From Promethearchaeota archaeon (GTDB lineage: Archaea; Asgardarchaeota; Hermodarchaeia; Hermodarchaeales; Hermodarchaeaceae), in contig JBHLPR010000029.1 in assembly GCA_048939245.1 (NCBI GenBank), positions 1 to 27,081 on the forward strand: a DNA stretch of 27,081 nt, given 5' to 3'. Shown here one piece after another: positions 8,734-21,908 of this stretch. Every line of letters begins with the position of its first letter. Positions within the stretch are counted from its first letter, which is position 1. Made by a program: the position numbers and the translations under genes. Under the pieces are notes generated by a model. It made no database searches. It had not been told where the DNA came from and saw only the letters and a list, made by a program, of their open reading frames with translations.

Positions 8734-11700
8734 CTACCTATCAACATTTCGTTGGTTTCTCTGCTTTTCTCGCCTTCGACGAATCAAGCGTACTGAAATC
8801 ACAATTAGGATAACGATTACAATAAGTAACAGGAATATGGATGGCAGATTCAACACAATGAGGTTCCAAATATAATAAACAGGGTCAATCGGTATCTCAC
8901 TCGATCTGAATATAGTGATTTCAACACCACTAATTATAATCCCCTCCTCATAGCCTGTAATTACATATGTTCGCTGGAAATTCGAAGCAGTAATGGCTCC
9001 AGGTGTAATAAATTCCAAGGCTGGGTGGTCTCCAAAAACGGATGGGCCTTCAGAATCTGGCGGTCGCGTAATGACAGCTATCCATTCTGTATCGATGTCT
9101 TTTTCGGTGCTCCAATTTAAAGATAAACGAGGAATTTCCCTGAATAACGGAATATCAACTTCTCCAGTGTTATGGAATAAAGTACCAATATAGAGAATCT
9201 CATAATTCTCGACTCCAATGTTGTTATAAGGATTCGCATCCTCTGGGTGATTTATTGTTACGCGGATGCATACATCCATTTCTTCGGTTATATGGAAGGG
9301 TGCAAGGAACGTTGTAATGCCATTTCCTGGGACGTTAAATGGTCCTGATTCTGCTATTTTGGTCCATTCTTTCTGCCCAATTCCCCACCCGCTCCATTCA
9401 AACAGCACAGTTGTGCCATGCGCATCTTCCGGAGAAATATTACGCACATCAGCTTCAATCATATAAAGGCTGGGAGGAATCAATTCAAATGTACCCACAG
9501 GAATTTGTGAAAGAATGCTCTTTACACGGATACACGGATTATTCCACCTAGGATTTGCATCGCTTCCGGATCCCGCAGGATTTAGATACCAAGTTGATTC
9601 ATCCCACTGAGAATAAATTACTAAGTCAGGTCGATTATCCCAACGACCGAATGCAACGCTTGCGCACCGATCGGATTGATGTGCAACAATGGTCTCTTGA
9701 GGCGCACTCCCAAAAGGAACAGAGATTACCTCATCAAAAGATGAGGTCTGAATATCAAATATATATAATTCTCTGAAAACTCCGAAATCAATCTTCACCT
9801 CTTCTTGTGGATTGAAATTCTCTCCATGTATAACTATGTCTGTTCCAGTCACTCCATCTTCAGGTGTAGCAGTTATCCACGCTTTTTGTGAGCATACAAC
9901 TATTTCATCCTGAAAAGGGATGAAATCTTTATGAGTCACTGTAATAGTCAGCGCCTCACTTTGCAATGGAACAATAGTACACTCTGCTACTCCCTCTCTA
10001 TTTGTATAAAACACATCATGCACAGTGGTTCCGTGCACACAGACTTTTGCTGATTGAACTCGTTGCTGAGTATCTTGAGAGGTTACTGTCACCCAGAATG
10101 ACTGGGGACCACCAAATCCAATCTGATCATTATAGCTTACCACAAGCTCTTGCGGTTTTTGAGTATAGATAGCTAATTCGGGGTCTCCAAAGAGATGATA
10201 CATTTCAAAGGTCAATTGCGAAAGGATTGCCTCTTGTGTAAAGGCGTTGAAACACATCATTTTGCCAAACCACATCATCTGGCCAAGGGTCAACCGCTCG
10301 CCCGCAGAATATTCTTCGTCAAAGCCATCCCATAATGCATCAATCATACCCGTAAGAAAGAATTTGTTTGATCGTAATTCAGATAACCGCGTTGCACCAA
10401 TCGCGGCAATTGCCCCTTTATTGTTGCCTAATCGAGTGATCTCTTCACAGAATGCATCAACATTTGGGTTAAACCCTTCTTCGTAAAAGCCTGAATATGG
10501 TTGTGTTGTTGATTCATTATCAGTTTCTCCATCAAACCATCCTGTATTGCACGCTAAGCTCAAGACAAGGGGCCATTCATGATACCCTACCATAACATCA
10601 ACAAAATCCTCTGTATAAAAAGCTGGGTCCCACCACCCGTCAAATTCTGGTGAAGTTCCATAAAAGCTATAATAATTTTGTGCATTCCCATGGCCGTAAT
10701 AATAAACGAGGGTATTTCCCGCAGCTATCTTCGTCTTCACTTCGTCAACAGCAGTTTCTGTGAAAGTATTCTTCGCAATATCTAAACTGGTTAGATATTC
10801 ATTGATATAGTTCATCGTATCAAAATGGCTGAAGTCATTACCAGCGAGTGATGTTATTGTCCGGTAAAAGTTAGGATCAGTTGGTGGGGATTTTTCGTAA
10901 TCAATGATCTTGTTCTTCATTGTTAAAACATCGGAGATCGAGTCGACAGATAGACGACCATAATGGATATCGGGGACATAATCAGGGCCATCAACGGTGA
11001 AGTAAGGTAAGTCCGTCCCGATGCCTGCTAAATGCATTTCATGCCACATCCCATAATGTGGAGGGATGTGATCGGAATCTCCCACAAATAGCACATAAGA
11101 TGGAGCAGGATTCCAATTATCATAAGCGAATTTAATATAGTCCGTCAGGTCGTCAACCTTTTCTTGGTAAGTATCACTCCCTGGCTTGAATATTTCTTCA
11201 ACAGTAGTGATTTTTGTAAGGTACCCTTTCTGTTGCTTCCAATCAGCTAGCTCCTGAACAGCATTCTTGAATTCGTCGGTCGTAATAATGAGATAGTCTG
11301 CAGCTTCTACCGCTTGTGCGGGTTCCGATTTTCGTAGCGGCATTGGAACTGAAGGGAAGGAGATACTCTGATAATTCAATACAGTGTGCTCCAATAATGT
11401 CTCAAAGGCTGGGGATACAAGTCTTGTATCTACTGGAGCAATTGGAGTATTCTGAAAATTTAGACCAATTCGTATTTCTGAAAATATTTTGCAACTATTA
11501 GTCAGACCATTGAATTGAACGGGTAGGATATTAAGAGCTACCACACGATGTCCTCGAATAATGATTGGATTATTGTGTTGTCCCCCTGAAAGATACGCTA
11601 CTCTTGTAGGAAACCATAAACTCGAACCAGGAAAATAGGTTGTGAGGTTTTGTTGGAACGATGGGGGATTAAAATCAGGATGATCAAAATGTGGTCCCTG

Positions 11701-12234
11701 ATGTGGTCTAACAACTGTGTTGTACTGAATATGTTCCTCGTAATTGATTGAGGTGATCTGGATGTTGGTTCCGTATGGGACCTGAATTAGACGGGTGATG
11801 ACGGGCACTTCAGGATTTCCTATTTCTGTTAAAAATCCACTAAATGGGATTTGTAATTCATCAAAGGGGAGCGGGGGTTTCCCCACAAAGACAGGAAAAT
11901 CCCATACTCCGGGAATAATGGTTTTTACTTGCAGTTGTGCTGGTTGCGCTACTGTAACATATGATTGGGGAGGAGAATCTGAAGGATATCCGCCAATGAG
12001 GGGAATCCATGTGCTTCCATTGGGTAATTTCCTGAATAGGCTATCCTTAGTTTCAGCTAGCTTGACTTCAGTGATATTTGGTTGGGCCGTGTCAAAGTAC
12101 CTCTGAGAGAATAGTTGAGGGATTTGGATACGGAGACCTGCTGGTGATAGAACCATCGCGATTATAATTATTAAAACGAAGGCAATTGCTTTTCTTTCCT
12201 TATTCCCGATCAACAGAAACCCTTCATTCTTCAT
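8734..12234 (-). CDS. C25 (gingipain-like) cysteine peptidase with propeptide, Ig-like domains and C-terminal membrane anchor
   Basis: Signal/anchor helix; propeptide 'IGNPEVPVITRLIQVP'; C25 core 'DYLIIT..F...LADWKQQKG', 'YVLFVGD', 'PDIHYGRL'; catalytic His (YYGHG) and Cys (SLACNTGWFD); 'YHLFGDPEL'; C-terminal TM followed by RRRR. Confidence 0.92.
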   Translation of the reverse strand: MKNEGFLLIGNKERKAIAFVLIIIIAMVLSPAGLRIQIPQLFSQRYFDTAQPNITEVKLAETKDSLFRKLPNGSTWIPLIGGYPSDSPPQSYVTVAQPAQLQVKTIIPGVWDFPVFVGKPPLPFDELQIPFSGFLTEIGNPEVPVITRLIQVPYGTNIQITSINYEEHIQYNTVVRPHQGPHFDHPDFNPPSFQQNLTTYFPGSSLWFPTRVAYLSGGQHNNPIIIRGHRVVALNILPVQFNGLTNSCKIFSEIRIGLNFQNTPIAPVDTRLVSPAFETLLEHTVLNYQSISFPSVPMPLRKSEPAQAVEAADYLIITTDEFKNAVQELADWKQQKGYLTKITTVEEIFKPGSDTYQEKVDDLTDYIKFAYDNWNPAPSYVLFVGDSDHIPPHYGMWHEMHLAGIGTDLPYFTVDGPDYVPDIHYGRLSVDSISDVLTMKNKIIDYEKSPPTDPNFYRTITSLAGNDFSHFDTMNYINEYLTSLDIAKNTFTETAVDEVKTKIAAGNTLVYYYGHGNAQNYYSFYGTSPEFDGWWDPAFYTEDFVDVMVGYHEWPLVLSLACNTGWFDGETDNESTTQPYSGFYEEGFNPNVDAFCEEITRLGNNKGAIAAIGATRLSELRSNKFFLTGMIDALWDGFDEEYSAGERLTLGQMMWFGKMMCFNAFTQEAILSQLTFEMYHLFGDPELAIYTQKPQELVVSYNDQIGFGGPQSFWVTVTSQDTQQRVQSAKVCVHGTTVHDVFYTNREGVAECTIVPLQSEALTITVTHKDFIPFQDEIVVCSQKAWITATPEDGVTGTDIVIHGENFNPQEEVKIDFGVFRELYIFDIQTSSFDEVISVPFGSAPQETIVAHQSDRCASVAFGRWDNRPDLVIYSQWDESTWYLNPAGSGSDANPRWNNPCIRVKSILSQIPVGTFELIPPSLYMIEADVRNISPEDAHGTTVLFEWSGWGIGQKEWTKIAESGPFNVPGNGITTFLAPFHITEEMDVCIRVTINHPEDANPYNNIGVENYEILYIGTLFHNTGEVDIPLFREIPRLSLNWSTEKDIDTEWIAVITRPPDSEGPSVFGDHPALEFITPGAITASNFQRTYVITGYEEGIIISGVEITIFRSSEIPIDPVYYIWNLIVLNLPSIFLLLIVIVILIVISVRLIRRRREKQRNQRNVDR

Positions 12235-12625: not shown

Positions 12626-12711
12626 TTTTTTGCATCTTCTGATGCAAAAAACCTCTTTTTCCTTATCACTTCTCGGTATTTTTGTACCTTTCAGCTCCCA
12701 TCGAATAATAT
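12626..12711 (+). promoter_or_regulatory. conserved promoter unit 1: palindrome TTTGCA-N8-TGCAAA plus atttttgYac-N6-gctcccatcgaataatat
   Basis: 11-bp inverted repeat 12626-12636/12641-12651; the 18-mer gctcccatcgaataatat at 12694-12711 is identical to 13217-13234; same spacing in both units. Confidence 0.75.
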
Positions 12712-12788
12712 CAAACAGACGCATATTCTCAATTGTGCTGGGATTCTTACCCAGGATTCCGGTAACACCACAATTGGAGGTATTTGAG

Positions 12789-12929
12789 ATGGTCGAATCC
12801 AAACATAAGCGCAAGAATTTAGCAGAAATGTCGGCAACTGAGCGTGCTGTGGCTGGCTGCCGAAACCCTCATCCAGTAGCTAAGCCACGAACCCGCTATG
12901 CAGTTATGCTGGTTCTCAGCCGACACTAG
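12789..12929 (+). CDS. 46-aa basic peptide, paralog 1 (ERAVxGxxNP family)
   Basis: MVESKHKRKNLAEMSATERAVAGCRNPHPVAKPRTRYAVMLVLSRH*; GGAGGT RBS 12776-12781; homologous to 13288-13410. It is the C-terminal part of track ORF 12612..12929. Confidence 0.8.
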   Translation: MVESKHKRKNLAEMSATERAVAGCRNPHPVAKPRTRYAVMLVLSRH

Positions 12930-12987
12930 ACTGTGAGGAATCCCCATGGTGAAGAAACGATCCCCAGAACCTCCTTGCAGTCTTATC

Positions 12988-13112
12988 AATCGGGCCTACA
13001 CACCCTCCATTCGTGCTCCTTTCCGTTGTTGGGGGATTGGCGTAATAGCAATCCGGCAACGGGTGGACTCACCCTTTGGCTTTTCAACTATGGAGCTTTT
13101 GTGGGCCCGGTT
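12988..13112 (+). ncRNA. putative ~125-nt structured RNA element 1 (3' of peptide 1)
   Basis: 13-bp closing helix aatcgggcctaca/tgtgggcccggtt (2 G-U); nested ctccat/atggag, ccgttgtt/ggcaacgg and ggattg/caatcc; T8 tract at 13147-13154. Strand inferred from G-U pairs and gene orientation. Confidence 0.55.
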
Positions 13113-13151
13113 TATCCACTTCTAAAATCTTGTGATGGTGAAATTCTTTTT

Positions 13152-13234
13152 TTTGCACCCCTCAGTGCAAATGTTGGCAGACTCTCCCTCTTTTTGTTAG
13201 ATTTTTGCACTTATTGGCTCCCATCGAATAATAT
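13152..13234 (+). promoter_or_regulatory. conserved promoter unit 2
   Basis: tttgca-cccctcag-tgcaaa 13152-13171; atttttgcac 13201-13210; gctcccatcgaataatat 13217-13234; spacing identical to unit 1. Confidence 0.75.
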
Positions 13235-13287
13235 GCAATTCTAGAGTTAGGTATCATTGTCTCGCATCAGCGGGACGGTGAAATGAA

Positions 13288-13410
13288 ATGGCTCAGAAAA
13301 AGAAAATTGGTAAAATGGCTGTTGCCGAACGTGCTGTGACCGGCGCTAAAAACCCCAAGGGCACCCCCCGAGATCGAATTAACTTTGCTATCGTAACTTC
13401 ACGACGCTAA
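13288..13410 (+). CDS. 40-aa basic peptide, paralog 2 (not in ORF track)
   Basis: MAQKKKIGKMAVAERAVTGAKNPKGTPRDRINFAIVTSRR*; GGTGA RBS 13277-13281; aligns without gaps to peptide 1 over about 32 residues. Confidence 0.8.
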   Translation: MAQKKKIGKMAVAERAVTGAKNPKGTPRDRINFAIVTSRR

Positions 13411-13467
13411 TCATGCTTACTAGGGATCGACACTCAAACTGTGACACGGATTATAACCACTGACTGA

Positions 13468-13600
13468 AGCCGGGTCTTCATGGTAACCGGATAAAACTCC
13501 GAATCCGTTGTCCAAAAAGGTCCATTGCCACCCACACAAACGGACCGGGAAGTGCCGAAATGGAGGGGAAGAAAATCCTGAAGACCCGGCTGATTTTTTT
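13468..13600 (+). ncRNA. putative ~124-nt structured RNA element 2 plus T-tract
   Basis: Perfect 13-bp inverted repeat agccgggtcttca 13468-13480 / tgaagacccggct 13579-13591; inner ctcc/ggag and tccgtt/aacgga; T7 at 13594-13600. Confidence 0.55.
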
Positions 13601-15392: not shown

Positions 15393-16370
15393 TCAGGCAT
15401 CAAGTTGTTTGAAGAGCTGTTCAAAGTAATCATCAATTGGACTCCGAAACACCCTTGTCGGATACCCATAGATAGCATTTGCAGAAACAGCCTCAGATGT
15501 CTGTCGAATCGTTTCGATAATCTCACTCGCCTCGCGCATATGCTCAACCACAAAAACACAAAAAATCTCCGGCTCAAACGCCGACGCATATGCATACCAA
15601 AATTTCACCGGATAATAGTCCTGTAAAATCTTCACAATTTTGGATCTTTGTTGTGTTCCTTCTTCATGTCGAATAATGATTACAAAAGCCGTATATCCTC
15701 CCGCATTCAAATTCCATTGTACAGTAATTTTAAAACAGACCTCACTAGGTCGACTCCCACCCCTCGGCTCCCAATTAATATAGATATTTGGTTCCGATCC
15801 ATTCTCACCAATTAACTCGCCGATTATCTTTCGGATCCGACGAGGCGTTAACCGCGTCTGTTTAGACATATCACTAATCGACATTCGTGCATCCTGATGT
15901 AAACAGCGAAGAACCTTCAGATCTGATTTAGATAACTCACAACGTTTACCCGGCTCAGTGAGTATCGTATGGAATTCCACTCCTTCTACTCCTGGAATCT
16001 GCCGTAAAAACGTACCAATCTCTTGAAGTCCCATAGCCCCGGCATAACTTCCGAAACAAAGAATACTCCCATCGGTCAAAATGCTCGCTGAACCTACCAA
16101 TCTATGTGCTCCTAAGGAGTCTAGGAATGCATCGGATGGAATCGGATCCTGGGTTCGGATGATTGCTACCCAATCTTCCATACCTAACATTGCATTTGTC
16201 GGTAGTAACTGCCCCCCTCGAATGATTCCATCACTATTCAGCTTCTGAATCCGCTTCTTAATCGCATTCACCGAAAGGCTGAGTTTCTTCGCAATCGCCT
16301 GATATGAAGCTCGGTAATTAACCGATAACTCGAAGATTATGTTCTTGTCTACGATATCCATCGACACCAC
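15393..16370 (-). CDS. Lrp/AsnC-family regulator with two tandem HTH-effector modules
   Basis: 'MDIVDKNIIFELSVNYRASYQAIAKKLSLSVNAIKKRIQKL' and a second HTH 'DLKVLRCLHQDARMSISDMSKQTRLTPRRIRK'. Confidence 0.9.
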   Translation of the reverse strand: MVSMDIVDKNIIFELSVNYRASYQAIAKKLSLSVNAIKKRIQKLNSDGIIRGGQLLPTNAMLGMEDWVAIIRTQDPIPSDAFLDSLGAHRLVGSASILTDGSILCFGSYAGAMGLQEIGTFLRQIPGVEGVEFHTILTEPGKRCELSKSDLKVLRCLHQDARMSISDMSKQTRLTPRRIRKIIGELIGENGSEPNIYINWEPRGGSRPSEVCFKITVQWNLNAGGYTAFVIIIRHEEGTQQRSKIVKILQDYYPVKFWYAYASAFEPEIFCVFVVEHMREASEIIETIRQTSEAVSANAIYGYPTRVFRSPIDDYFEQLFKQLDA

Positions 16371-16635
16371 TCATTGCCTTTTACAGCTAAATAGAAGGTA
16401 GTTTGGGTGATATCCTACCATTTTAGCTTACACATGCCTTATCTCAAAGGTCTGAATCCACATTCTTTACAGTACTATCGCATAAAAATATAAACTGCCA
16501 CAAAAATCAACCACTTTGTAATAGCATACTAGCGATTTTGTACAAATAATTTTTGAGTCAATCAACCCATATTAAACAGACAGTTATTCACCAAACCAAA
16601 TAATAATCCACATGTTAAGATAGTGGTGACCTAAT

Positions 16636-17604
16636 TTGGATGAGATTGATAAAGGGATTCTACTTGAATTAGCTGATAACTGTAGAATCTCTTATCAAGA
16701 TCTGGCTACCCAACTCGGCATTACCGTGAACGCTATAAAAAAACGATTTGACAAGTTAGTTGAAAGCGGAGTTATCTGCGGGTTCACTATTTATCCCAGC
16801 CTTGCTATGTTAGAAGCAGATAATTTGGTTGCCCGGATTTATCCAGAAATCCAACCACAATCTGATGAGCTTCTTGATTTAATTGGGTCCAATAGGATGG
16901 TTAGAACTGGCAGTTATCTCGCCGATGGCTCAGTTCTTTGCTTTGCCGATTATCAGGGGAGTATGGGTTTGGCAGAACTTGGAAAATTCCTCAGAGGAAT
17001 ATCTAGTGTTAAGCAGGTTGACCTCCATACAGTAATCTGTGAGAAGGGGAGTAGATGTGAGCTCACGGCTGATGATCTAAGAGTTCTACGTGAACTTAAA
17101 ACCGATGCCCGAATGCCTCTCTCTGAAATTGCTCGAAACACAGGCTTAACTCCCCGACGAGTGCGAAAGAATCTTCTGAAACTTTTCGGTGAGAGTGGCT
17201 CCGGATGGGAAATTGCAGTTGATGAGCAATCGTTTGGTGATCAGCGCACCCGTCAAGCCTGTATGTATTCACGAGTCCTATGGAATCTAAATGCAGGAGG
17301 CGCCACATTTTTCATAATCAGGATATTTTGGAAAGAGGACACAGCAAGCCCACACGAAGTCGTGGCCTGGCTACGTAAACATTTCCCACTTGAATTTTGG
17401 TATGCATATGTTTCAGCTACAGCTCCTGAAATCTATACCGTGTTCATGGTAGAACATCTACGAGATTCCAAACCTATTGCCAGAAAGGTTGGACACCAAC
17501 CTTTTACAGAATCCATTGAGCCGATTTTCGGCTATCCCAGCAAACGCTTCAAAAATATACGCGACTATTTCCTCGAAGAAAAATTTGCCACATTGGATAA
17601 GTAA
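16636..17604 (+). CDS. Lrp/AsnC-family regulator with two tandem HTH-effector modules (paralog of 15393-16370)
   Basis: 'MDEIDKGILLELADNCRISYQDLATQLGITVNAIKKRFDKL' and 'DLRVLRELKTDARMPLSEIARNTGLTPRRVRK'; shares WNLNAGG, FWYAY, VEH and GYP with its neighbour. Confidence 0.9.
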   Translation: MDEIDKGILLELADNCRISYQDLATQLGITVNAIKKRFDKLVESGVICGFTIYPSLAMLEADNLVARIYPEIQPQSDELLDLIGSNRMVRTGSYLADGSVLCFADYQGSMGLAELGKFLRGISSVKQVDLHTVICEKGSRCELTADDLRVLRELKTDARMPLSEIARNTGLTPRRVRKNLLKLFGESGSGWEIAVDEQSFGDQRTRQACMYSRVLWNLNAGGATFFIIRIFWKEDTASPHEVVAWLRKHFPLEFWYAYVSATAPEIYTVFMVEHLRDSKPIARKVGHQPFTESIEPIFGYPSKRFKNIRDYFLEEKFATLDK

Positions 17605-17764
17605 GCATCGGTAACTTTTTCCATCTCGTGAACTAGGCTATCTAAAATCTAACGCAGAACAGCCTCATTTATCGCATTCTAAAACGCTTCTCAAAAAGAG
17701 GTAAATTGTAATCTTGAATATCAAAGATTAATAAAAGGAGATTAAAGAGAACGCAGATTATTTT

Positions 17765-17847
17765 TTTGAACCCCGCAGTATAAAATAAAGTGCTTGTGCG
17801 CTCGTTCTTTCGTTTTTTTGCACCACTTTGTTGCCATCAATTGATAT
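17765..17847 (+). promoter_or_regulatory. third, diverged copy of the conserved promoter unit
   Basis: tttgaa-ccccgcag-tataaa 17765-17784; ttttttgcac 17814-17823; N6; gttgccatcaattgatat 17830-17847 (13/18 match to the 18-mer); spacings identical to units 1 and 2. Confidence 0.6.
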
Positions 17848-17923
17848 GTAAAAATGATACTTGTTGAGGTGAATCCCACGGAAATGGGTTCGTGGCGTTT
17901 ACAAGAAACGGAATCGGATCACA

Positions 17924-18235
17924 ATGACAGAACAAATAAACCAGAACCTAAGTAATTTCAAAACTTCAAAGAATGGTAGGGCATCCTCGAAGGCTATTAC
18001 TCGACATATTAACCGGATTCTCTCCGTATTACAAAGAGGGACTAGTCGAATTTTCGATCTTGGAGGGGGTCTCGCAGCCCTGTTCACAATTATGGATATG
18101 TGCTTTGTCTGGTATGGTGCATTCTACGGTGGTGGGGCTATCGTTGTCGGCGACACTCTCTTGATGTTACAACTTGAACTTGTGATTATCGGTCCCTTAG
18201 CCTTAGTTTGGATTCTTGCTAAATTCCGTGGATGA
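17924..18235 (+). CDS. small hypothetical membrane protein (2 TM, basic N-terminus)
   Basis: 103-aa ORF with two hydrophobic segments, downstream of promoter copy 3; no clear RBS. Confidence 0.5.
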   Translation: MTEQINQNLSNFKTSKNGRASSKAITRHINRILSVLQRGTSRIFDLGGGLAALFTIMDMCFVWYGAFYGGGAIVVGDTLLMLQLELVIIGPLALVWILAKFRG

Positions 18236-20589: not shown

Positions 20590-20732
20590 GCTTTAGTAGC
20601 CTCCAGCAAAGCTGTTTGCTATATTCTGACCTTGCGAAAGTGACTTAATTAACCTTACTTCTTTGAAGGCTTTCTGATGAAGACCATAACGTTTTTCTCA
20701 GAGAATTGTCTTCGACTTTTTTAGTGAAAAAC

Positions 20733-21908
20733 ATGACGGACAAAACACCACTTGGTCTTCCAATCCTAGACACGGCCCTAGGCGGAGGTATTCCCCGCGG
20801 TTATGTCATCTTACTTGAAGTTGATACCGGAACGCGAGCTGATGCGTTCATCTCAACCTTCTTAGCCACTGGCTTGCGGAAAGGCGAACACGCTTACATC
20901 CTGTGTACTGACTATCCTTTGCGGTTTCCGTTTGAGCAGTTGCGCCATAAGGGTATTAAAGTGGATGAACTGCTGGAATCAAAGCAGTTGATTGGAATTG
21001 ATGCGTTCACCGATGCGTTTGGGTGGGGAGAATTTGAGCCTGAGAGCGAGTTTTCGGTGCAGGACCTTGGAAATACTCGGCATATCCATGATATTATCCG
21101 CAAAGCTACCCTCGCAATGAACCCCGAAGCCAATCTTCGTGGCGTTGTCGATTCACTCACCTCGATTATTCATACGGCACAGGAACCTGATGAGGTAATC
21201 AAATCTGTGCATCAACAGGTGGGTGCCCAGAAAAATAATGGCAACATTCTTATCTACACCATAGCTCGAGAAGCCCACGAAGAAGAGGTATTACGACAAT
21301 TAGAACACATCGTGGATGGCGTTATTGCTCTCTACAAAGTTTATGACGAGGAAGGCTGGCAAATCGCATGTCAAATCGAGAAACTGCGAGGTATTGATTT
21401 CGAGCCGCAACTTTTACTATACCACGTAAAAGATGGAGAAATCACACTAACACCCTTCATTGAATTTGAAGAGGAGGAAGAGGAGGAAGAGGAGGAAGAG
21501 GAGGAAGAGGAGGAAGAGGAAACCGAAGAAGAATTAGTGGAGGAGGAAGAGGAGGAAGAGGAAACCGAAGAAGAATTAGTGGAGGAGGAAGAGGAAACCG
21601 AAGAAGAATTAGTGGAGGAGGAAGAGGAAACAATTGAGGAAAAGGCGGCACCGAGTGAGATCGAAGAAGTGGAAGATGAGGTAGAAAAAGAGTCTGATGA
21701 ACCACCTCAACCCGAAGTTAGACCTCCCCCCATCCCACCAGTTCCCGAGCCATCAGAAGCTCCTGAGTCTGAATCTGTTACGGACACATCCTCAGAAAAT
21801 TCCCGAACACCGATGGAGCCAATAATATTCGATAAACCCGAACCTTCAAAAAAACCAGACAAAACACCTTCAGAGGAACCCGATGAAGAGGACAGTTTCT
21901 TCTTCTAA
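20733..21908 (+). CDS. RecA/KaiC-like (RAD55-type) ATPase-fold protein with degenerate Walker A and long acidic/Pro-rich tail
   Basis: 'TPLGLPILDTALGGGIPRG', 'VVDSLTS', 'LEHIVDGVIAL', 'IEKLRG'; the P-loop position reads EVDTGTRAD. ATG 20733 is the likely start. Confidence 0.85.
   Translation: MTDKTPLGLPILDTALGGGIPRGYVILLEVDTGTRADAFISTFLATGLRKGEHAYILCTDYPLRFPFEQLRHKGIKVDELLESKQLIGIDAFTDAFGWGEFEPESEFSVQDLGNTRHIHDIIRKATLAMNPEANLRGVVDSLTSIIHTAQEPDEVIKSVHQQVGAQKNNGNILIYTIAREAHEEEVLRQLEHIVDGVIALYKVYDEEGWQIACQIEKLRGIDFEPQLLLYHVKDGEITLTPFIEFEEEEEEEEEEEEEEEEEETEEELVEEEEEEEETEEELVEEEEETEEELVEEEEETIEEKAAPSEIEEVEDEVEKESDEPPQPEVRPPPIPPVPEPSEAPESESVTDTSSENSRTPMEPIIFDKPEPSKKPDKTPSEEPDEEDSFFF
21468..21632 (+). 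repeat. coding tandem repeat: (gaggaggaa)n plus three 33-bp units encoding EEEEETEEELV
   Basis: gaggaggaa x5 at 21471-21515; gaggaggaagaggaaaccgaagaagaattagtg at 21507, 21549 and 21582, partial at 21615. Confidence 0.95.

Follow-up and report, generated by a model that had tools for sequence, protein, structure and literature searches.

Tandem genes of a new basic microprotein family with structured 3′ RNA domains in a Hermodarchaeia (Asgard) genome

Asgard archaea are the closest prokaryotic relatives of eukaryotes, and to our knowledge almost nothing is known of their small proteins and cis-regulatory RNA. Small acid-soluble spore proteins and hibernation factors are very small, multi-copy or stress-induced, are encoded by monocistronic genes with dedicated promoters, and fold on binding nucleic acid; we know of no conserved 125-nt 3′ domain in their mRNAs. 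Arginine-rich-motif peptides (lambda N-boxB, Rev-RRE, Tat) bind structured RNA through a short basic helix. Type III toxin-antitoxin systems pair an endoribonuclease toxin of more than 100 aa (ToxN/CptN/TenpN) with a tandem-repeat antitoxin RNA that lies upstream. In type I systems such as aapA/IsoA and hok/sok, multi-copy small ORFs are carried on highly folded, probably stable mRNAs whose distant parts pair, and in aapA/IsoA long-distance 5′-3′ pairing silences the primary transcript (PMC6733600). Within archaea, the available text on the interplay of haloarchaeal 5′- and 3′-UTRs (PMC2636863) describes a 3′-UTR that affects translation at a distance, and that on Asgard SECIS (PMC11227280) a 3′-UTR element acting at a distance on translation.

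The locus analysed here comes from the 2.5-Mb assembly of a Hermodarchaeia (Asgard) MAG, and the window, meaning the whole stretch of DNA that was analysed, comprises 27,081 nt of contig JBHLPR010000029.1. A sequence-only reading had proposed that it contains two peptide-plus-RNA units with the same order of parts, and the palindromes, 29-nt gaps, ORFs, spacers of 58 and 57 nt and structured elements were all found where that reading had placed them. The features are as follows, in window coordinates:

12628-12649, plus strand: unit 1 distal operator, TTTTGCA-N8-TGCAAAA (TGCAC-N6-GTGCA type), conserved in relatives 52-53 nt upstream of the proximal half-site
12678-12712, plus strand: unit 1 proximal half-site, BRE-like CCCATCGA and weak TATA (12705-12712); start site placed near 12734
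12729-12788, plus strand: unit 1 5′ leader with a conserved 5′-terminal hairpin and the Shine-Dalgarno sequence (SD) GGAGG at 12776-12780 (fold, ortholog comparison)
12789-12929, plus strand: ORF1, 46 aa, subfamily B; dN/dS 0.13; AlphaFold (AF2) helices at 16-23 and 33-44
12928-12983, plus strand: conserved unit 1 spacer hairpin, directly after the ORF1 stop; z -3.9
12988-13112, plus strand: unit 1 3′ domain, with closing helix, long UCCGUUG:CAACGG hairpin (13022-13063), then C/U-rich tail (covariation)
13151-13172, plus strand: unit 2 distal operator (sequence alignment with relatives)
13201-13235, plus strand: unit 2 proximal half-site, BRE-like motif and weak TATA (13228-13235); start site placed near 13257
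13252-13287, plus strand: unit 2 5′ hairpin overlapping SD GGTGA (13277-13281); z -5.6; hairpin conserved, SD overlap partial
13288-13410, plus strand: ORF2, 40 aa, subfamily A; dN/dS 0.11
13351-13370, plus strand: ORF2 codons N22-R28, with proposed long-range pairing to the complementary 3′-domain stretch 13546-13568 (synonymous-recoding tests)
13468-13591, plus strand: unit 2 3′ domain, with closing helix, UCCGUUGUCC (13504-13513), GGUCC:GGACC stem, invariant loop GCCACCC and invariant GGAAGUGC block (13546-13568 region) (covariation)
13594-13600, plus strand: unit 2 T-tract, probable terminator, conserved in subfamily A
17764-17848, plus strand: compound promoter, third copy, with no further one in the assembly; an unrelated ORF of 103 aa (17924-18235) follows (assembly scan)

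The units share a 34-nt repeat of 85% identity, at 12678 and 13201 (blastn E 0.002), and both elements have 13-bp closing helices (fold z -3.5 for unit 1 and -2.5 for unit 2); leaders as well as elements fold more stably than shuffled sequences. Two of the proposed parallels held in part. A T-tract ends unit 2 (7 T), whereas unit 1 has only its C/U-rich tail; and the elements, taken to be homologous, do have in common the closing helix, a CUCC:GGAG helix and UCCGUUG, but their interiors are different folds and the models built from unit 1 and unit 2 do not match one another. Each unit would be transcribed as a separate monocistronic gene. Divergent from unit 1 lies the gene for a 1166-aa secreted peptidase C25 (gingipain family; 8734-12234, minus strand), a neighbour that is not conserved in relatives, and an ORF at 20706-21908 (plus strand), assigned by eye as a RecA/KaiC-like ATPase, has a very long poly-Glu acidic tail.

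A peptide profile search recovered intact paralogs, 2-7 of them per genome, in 17 of the 18 family genomes; in about 380 other Asgard genomes the matches were at chance level and none was credible. Matches outside the family (E 0.005-0.035) were dismissed as chance; these contain stops or sit within long ORFs. Among 1.84 billion protein representatives searched, the matches were 20 members of the family plus a single repeat protein that is unrelated, and a cluster link to a 388-aa protein proved to be an artefact. We found no paper that describes the family, which agrees, as do the Pfam, NCBIfam, PDB and Rfam comparisons below, with the initial impression that it was not a known one. Both genes had been expected to be missed or miscalled by ORF calling; one caller does lengthen ORF1 to 95 aa, but both peptides are already in the protein collection, where many relatives are annotated 'hypothetical protein'. 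The host genome carries four copies: ORF1, ORF2, one on C79 and one on C108. The tandem of B and A types (unit 1 followed by unit 2) is kept in nine genomes, and in two others (G002 and G005) ORF2 and its promoter are gone while the unit-2 RNA is retained behind unit 1. The C108 copy (L061; G000:C108:8984-9109, minus strand) encodes a D-type peptide, and its 3′ region, with C/J-like motifs, is unlike that of all other D members, possibly through a tail swap. A copy with three in-frame stops (L080; G014:C6:44748-44882) is probably a pseudogene.

The peptides are 40-57 aa long and carry an invariant ER-x5-[RK]NP motif followed by a helix with a terminal SRR; all 76 members share the residues E, R, N and P, and dN/dS values of 0.11-0.13 in four subfamilies indicate purifying selection. 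Across the 76 members, median pI is 11.4, net charge about +9 and median GRAVY -0.79, and no transmembrane helix was found (19-residue hydropathy at most 0.53). The AF2 model, of limited confidence (pLDDT 72, pTM 0.42), is a helix-loop-helix of two helices and no strand, with an Arg-rich last helix. There was no significant family match in Pfam, NCBIfam, PHROGs, PADLOC or PDB sequences; no member matched any Pfam entry, and PF00216 (Bac_DNA_binding) was reached by 0 of 76 at E<=1. HU chains in the PDB align at E 0.5-0.9 over 18 residues through the short ER..RNP motif, a weak likeness to the HU/IHF DNA-binding arm (PF00216; E about 0.5); unlike that arm, the family motif is modelled as helix plus loop, not as beta ribbon, in a protein half the length. 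No usable match came from fold searches, in which the best Z was 3.5, Foldseek E values exceeded 4 and Atlas TM reached at most 0.54, and an ESM Atlas feature search returned no match for the peptides; neither outcome is evidence of a new fold. A likeness to the thermosome (E 1.1 only) was dropped, as was a slippery site in ORF2, which is not conserved. No fused longer form was found, in what is a weak test, and codon tables of family members show no in-frame UGA in the conserved ORF, which speaks against a SECIS-dependent selenoprotein mRNA.

Some paralogs are predicted to be cotranscribed with partner ORFs of 26-28 aa that retain only hydrophobic residues and an RR-stop end, downstream in C type (L060, at G000:C79 from 8751, and others) and upstream in J type, with L087 and L088 among the loci concerned. 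Since these keep only the hydrophobic-plus-RR end, they hint that the last helix is a functional part of the peptide. The likeliest role of the protein, judging by its composition, size and copy number, is to bind nucleic acid or the ribosome. Spore and hibernation proteins share with the family their size, multiplicity or putative stress induction, monocistronic layout and dedicated promoters, and match it in neither sequence nor fold.

The two units are preceded by the sole two perfect TTTGCA-N8-TGCAAA palindromes in the 2.5-Mb assembly (12629-12648 and 13152-13171). Aligned upstream regions reveal a compound promoter in which a TGCAC-N6-GTGCA-type operator is followed 52-53 nt on by a half-site, CCCATCGA and a weak TATA; it occurs three times in 2.5 Mb and, in the relatives examined, precedes only small genes. 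Other subfamilies have a canonical strong TATA and no operator. Start sites were placed 29 nt after the first TATA base, a spacing taken from the canonical promoters of paralog group C. Because the half-site adjoins a weak core promoter, the arrangement suggests that the regulator is an activator, for which archaeal Lrp/Ptr2-type regulation is a precedent. A divergent pair of double-HTH AsnC/Lrp-type regulator genes lies at 15393-17604 of the window, and these are candidate operator binders, such genes being frequent neighbours of peptide loci in relatives. The 103-aa ORF behind the third promoter copy has a hydrophobic C-terminal half; its homologs in G003 and G007 sit directly upstream of F-type peptide genes, so the locus at 17764-18235 may be rearranged or its peptide gene may have been lost. 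In four genomes (L200, L203, L204 and L205, of G004, G007, G003 and G014, respectively), the compound promoter and the same SD context precede a gene for a protein of about 80 aa with a signal-peptide-like N-terminus, which is followed by a hairpin and T-tract and is absent from the host assembly.

With the start sites so placed, both leaders begin with a hairpin. Hairpins covering the ribosome-binding site had been proposed to repress translation of both units. For unit 2 this stands in part, the hairpin being conserved and its overlap with the SD partial, but in unit 1 the arm that covers the SD is positioned at or upstream of the predicted start site, and orthologs do not keep it. Locally, the SD of unit-1 orthologs is free, and full-length folds often pair it, non-specifically, with the C/U-rich 3′ tail; across paralogs its predicted unpaired probability ranges from 0.01 to 0.96 with varying partners, and many have a free SD and a simple hairpin only.

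These folds bear on the idea of a toxin-antitoxin-like module, in which a toxic peptide would be silenced by its folded mRNA or by the 3′ RNA. Multi-copy small ORFs on highly folded mRNAs are found in aapA/IsoA (PMC6733600), and the unit-1-type SD is mostly paired in full-length folds, often with the 3′ tail; however, that pairing runs through a generic pyrimidine tract, and the many paralogs with a free SD and one simple hairpin speak against such a module. A classical type I toxin, as first suggested, is not supported, as no transmembrane helix was found. The family peptide is basic and soluble rather than a membrane toxin, the complementarity described below targets the coding region and not the SD, and no antisense RNA was identified (the sequence beyond the T-tract is not conserved, and the antisense-promoter scan used a bacterial model). 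Nor is the suggestion of a type III system supported, as there is no ToxN-like nuclease, no repeat array and no PADLOC match; a single element lies downstream of each of the two ORFs, and the family proteins are 40-57 aa long. Stable orthologous loci and an operator-controlled regulon are likewise unlike addiction modules, and we consider such a module quite improbable.

The 3′ elements covary. In the unit-1 region, 13 of 43 pairs are changed on both sides, and in the unit-2 element six pairs are; each score was reached by 0 of 500 shuffles, a control that relatedness inflates. G-U variants indicate that the elements are read on the plus strand. The proposal of co-regulated small-protein genes with selected RNA structure is supported. 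Every credible match of the two covariance models (R1 and R2), including weak cross-matches on other subfamilies, lies 3′ of a family ORF, and 132 other Asgard genomes contained none. The closing helix occurs in about 43 of 72 paralogs, while about 29 (about 40%) lack the element and have the same peptide core; simpler hairpins of other kinds occur in subfamilies D, F, I and J. Two helices, the closing one (GGGYCUUC:GAAGRCCC) and that of UCCGUUG, keep their sequence across subfamilies with unalignable interiors. Against Rfam 15 the best E was 0.97, far below gathering, and eight paralog loci gave no match; no tRNA or tmRNA was found, and no conserved promoter is visible in the spacer. Resemblances to cobalamin, HDV-like and T-box RNAs were dropped after inspection by eye and with Rfam, and an antisense guide to 23S rRNA was discarded, the best duplexes being scattered and off the conserved motifs (family 23S, partial sequences). 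Because the elements are read on the plus strand, lie only 3′ of family genes and are absent from about 40% of paralogs, a cis 3′ domain fits better than a separate antitoxin RNA, and the 125-nt element looks like a cis domain of the mRNA.

Elements of about 125 nt with 13-bp inverted ends might be taken for chance duplications or MITE-like repeats with terminal inverted repeats, but this is refuted by orthologous positions across genomes, G-U-tolerant covariation, dN/dS of about 0.12 and the lack of dispersed copies in the genome, and its probability is negligible. An unlikely reading makes the 3′ element the main actor, as ligand sensor, ribozyme or released trans-acting RNA, with the peptide gene as a co-transcribed partner. 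It rests on the two genomes that kept the unit-2 core after loss of ORF2 and its promoter; the invariant unpaired motifs would also suit it, as would a separate conserved, ORF-poor RNA locus on C85 that begins with a similar helix. Against it, the element has no Rfam match, is never found apart from a family ORF, contains neither a bulge-helix-bulge nor C/D boxes, and misfits the part order of HDV on inspection; no conserved gene lies downstream as a possible regulatory target. The C85 locus itself (G000:C85:9119-9499; L210:520-900) is preceded by a TATA and contains two 172-nt structured repeats, with a closing helix of 16 bp that begins GGGUCUGC. It is a candidate undescribed ncRNA, conserved in 8 of 19 family genomes and without an Rfam match.

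A further possibility, tentative and compatible with the explanation we favour below, is that the sequence-conserved helices of the 3′ domain are recognised by the peptide encoded on the same mRNA, which would result in autoregulation or a small RNP. A net charge of about +9 and the Arg-rich last helix would suit this, and helices conserved in sequence across unalignable interiors are what protein-binding sites would look like. As with arginine-rich-motif peptides, a short basic helix is found beside structured RNA, though binding here is putative and many family paralogs lack the RNA. Those paralogs keep the same peptide core, the host C108 copy combines a D-type peptide with a different tail, and the RNA outlasts ORF2 in G002 and G005. 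The peptide-RNA pair is therefore obligate in neither direction.

The unit-2 3′ domain appears to pair with its own coding sequence. In subfamily A, the codons around G-T-P are complementary to the invariant GGAAGUGC block, and for the Gly of G-T-P all members use GGC or GGT, whereas the codon of the other Gly varies freely. In subfamily D, the N-P-H-P-T codons pair over 11 bp with a different 3′ sequence, and two synonymous columns have changes on both sides (reached by 3 of 500 shuffles). Tested against synonymous recodings, the actual codons have a pairing advantage at the NP window and nowhere else: mean z is about -2 in A and D and close to 0 otherwise. The signal arises mainly with the own UTR and is largely lost with that of another subfamily (A/A -2.18, A/B -0.06, A/C 0.02, A/D -0.84). 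For 12 of 14 subfamily A members, p<0.1 for pairing of CDS and 3′ domain, values that are not independent because the sequences are related. The A-type helix shows no covariation, both of its sides being nearly invariant, and the GGAAGUGC block can also pair locally. Neither subfamily B (unit 1) nor C gave a pairing signal. Pairing is thus well supported in D, moderately supported in unit 2 and unsupported in unit 1.

The explanation we favour, to which we give about an even chance, is that the units are induced monocistronic mRNAs with protected 5′ and 3′ ends, in some of which, depending on the paralog, a 3′ domain couples folding to translation, and that they encode a nucleic-acid- or ribosome-binding protein of stress or dormancy. 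A shared regulator, bound at the full operator and at the half-site by the weak BRE/TATA, would turn on a small regulon of tiny proteins, and the closing helix and pyrimidine tail would terminate the transcript and shield it. Within the unit-2 subfamily, the invariant block would pair back onto codons N22-R28, so that the fold of the mRNA would depend on ribosome passage and could tune storage, translation or decay. The product, a helix-loop-helix protein of pI about 11, would bind to a nucleic acid, the ribosome or another large RNP in stress or dormancy and, as composition and multiplicity suggest, would act like the multi-copy spore or hibernation proteins. Among the points against this explanation is the unit-2 RNA left without ORF2 in two genomes, a retention that a purely ORF2-directed element does not need.

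The microproteins and their RNA elements are genuine new protein and RNA families, of a small-protein-on-structured-mRNA kind, whose importance is limited by their narrow range, one class-level lineage, and by the putative nature of their function. Compared with the archaeal 3′-UTR systems, as far as the available text of those reports goes (PMC2636863, PMC11227280), the family element is larger, has no Rfam match, and is directly complementary to the CDS, and the ORF has no in-frame UGA to recode. It is unusual for a 3′-UTR to pair into its own CDS, and to do so at the same codons in two subfamilies that differ in sequence. It may also be, though we think this doubtful, that the 3′ domain and the coding region of the same mRNA pair as a sensor of translation and that the basic peptide binds this domain, together forming an RNP switch; if true, this would be an Asgard-specific device for feedback or mRNA storage, complete in itself and without a described counterpart in archaea.
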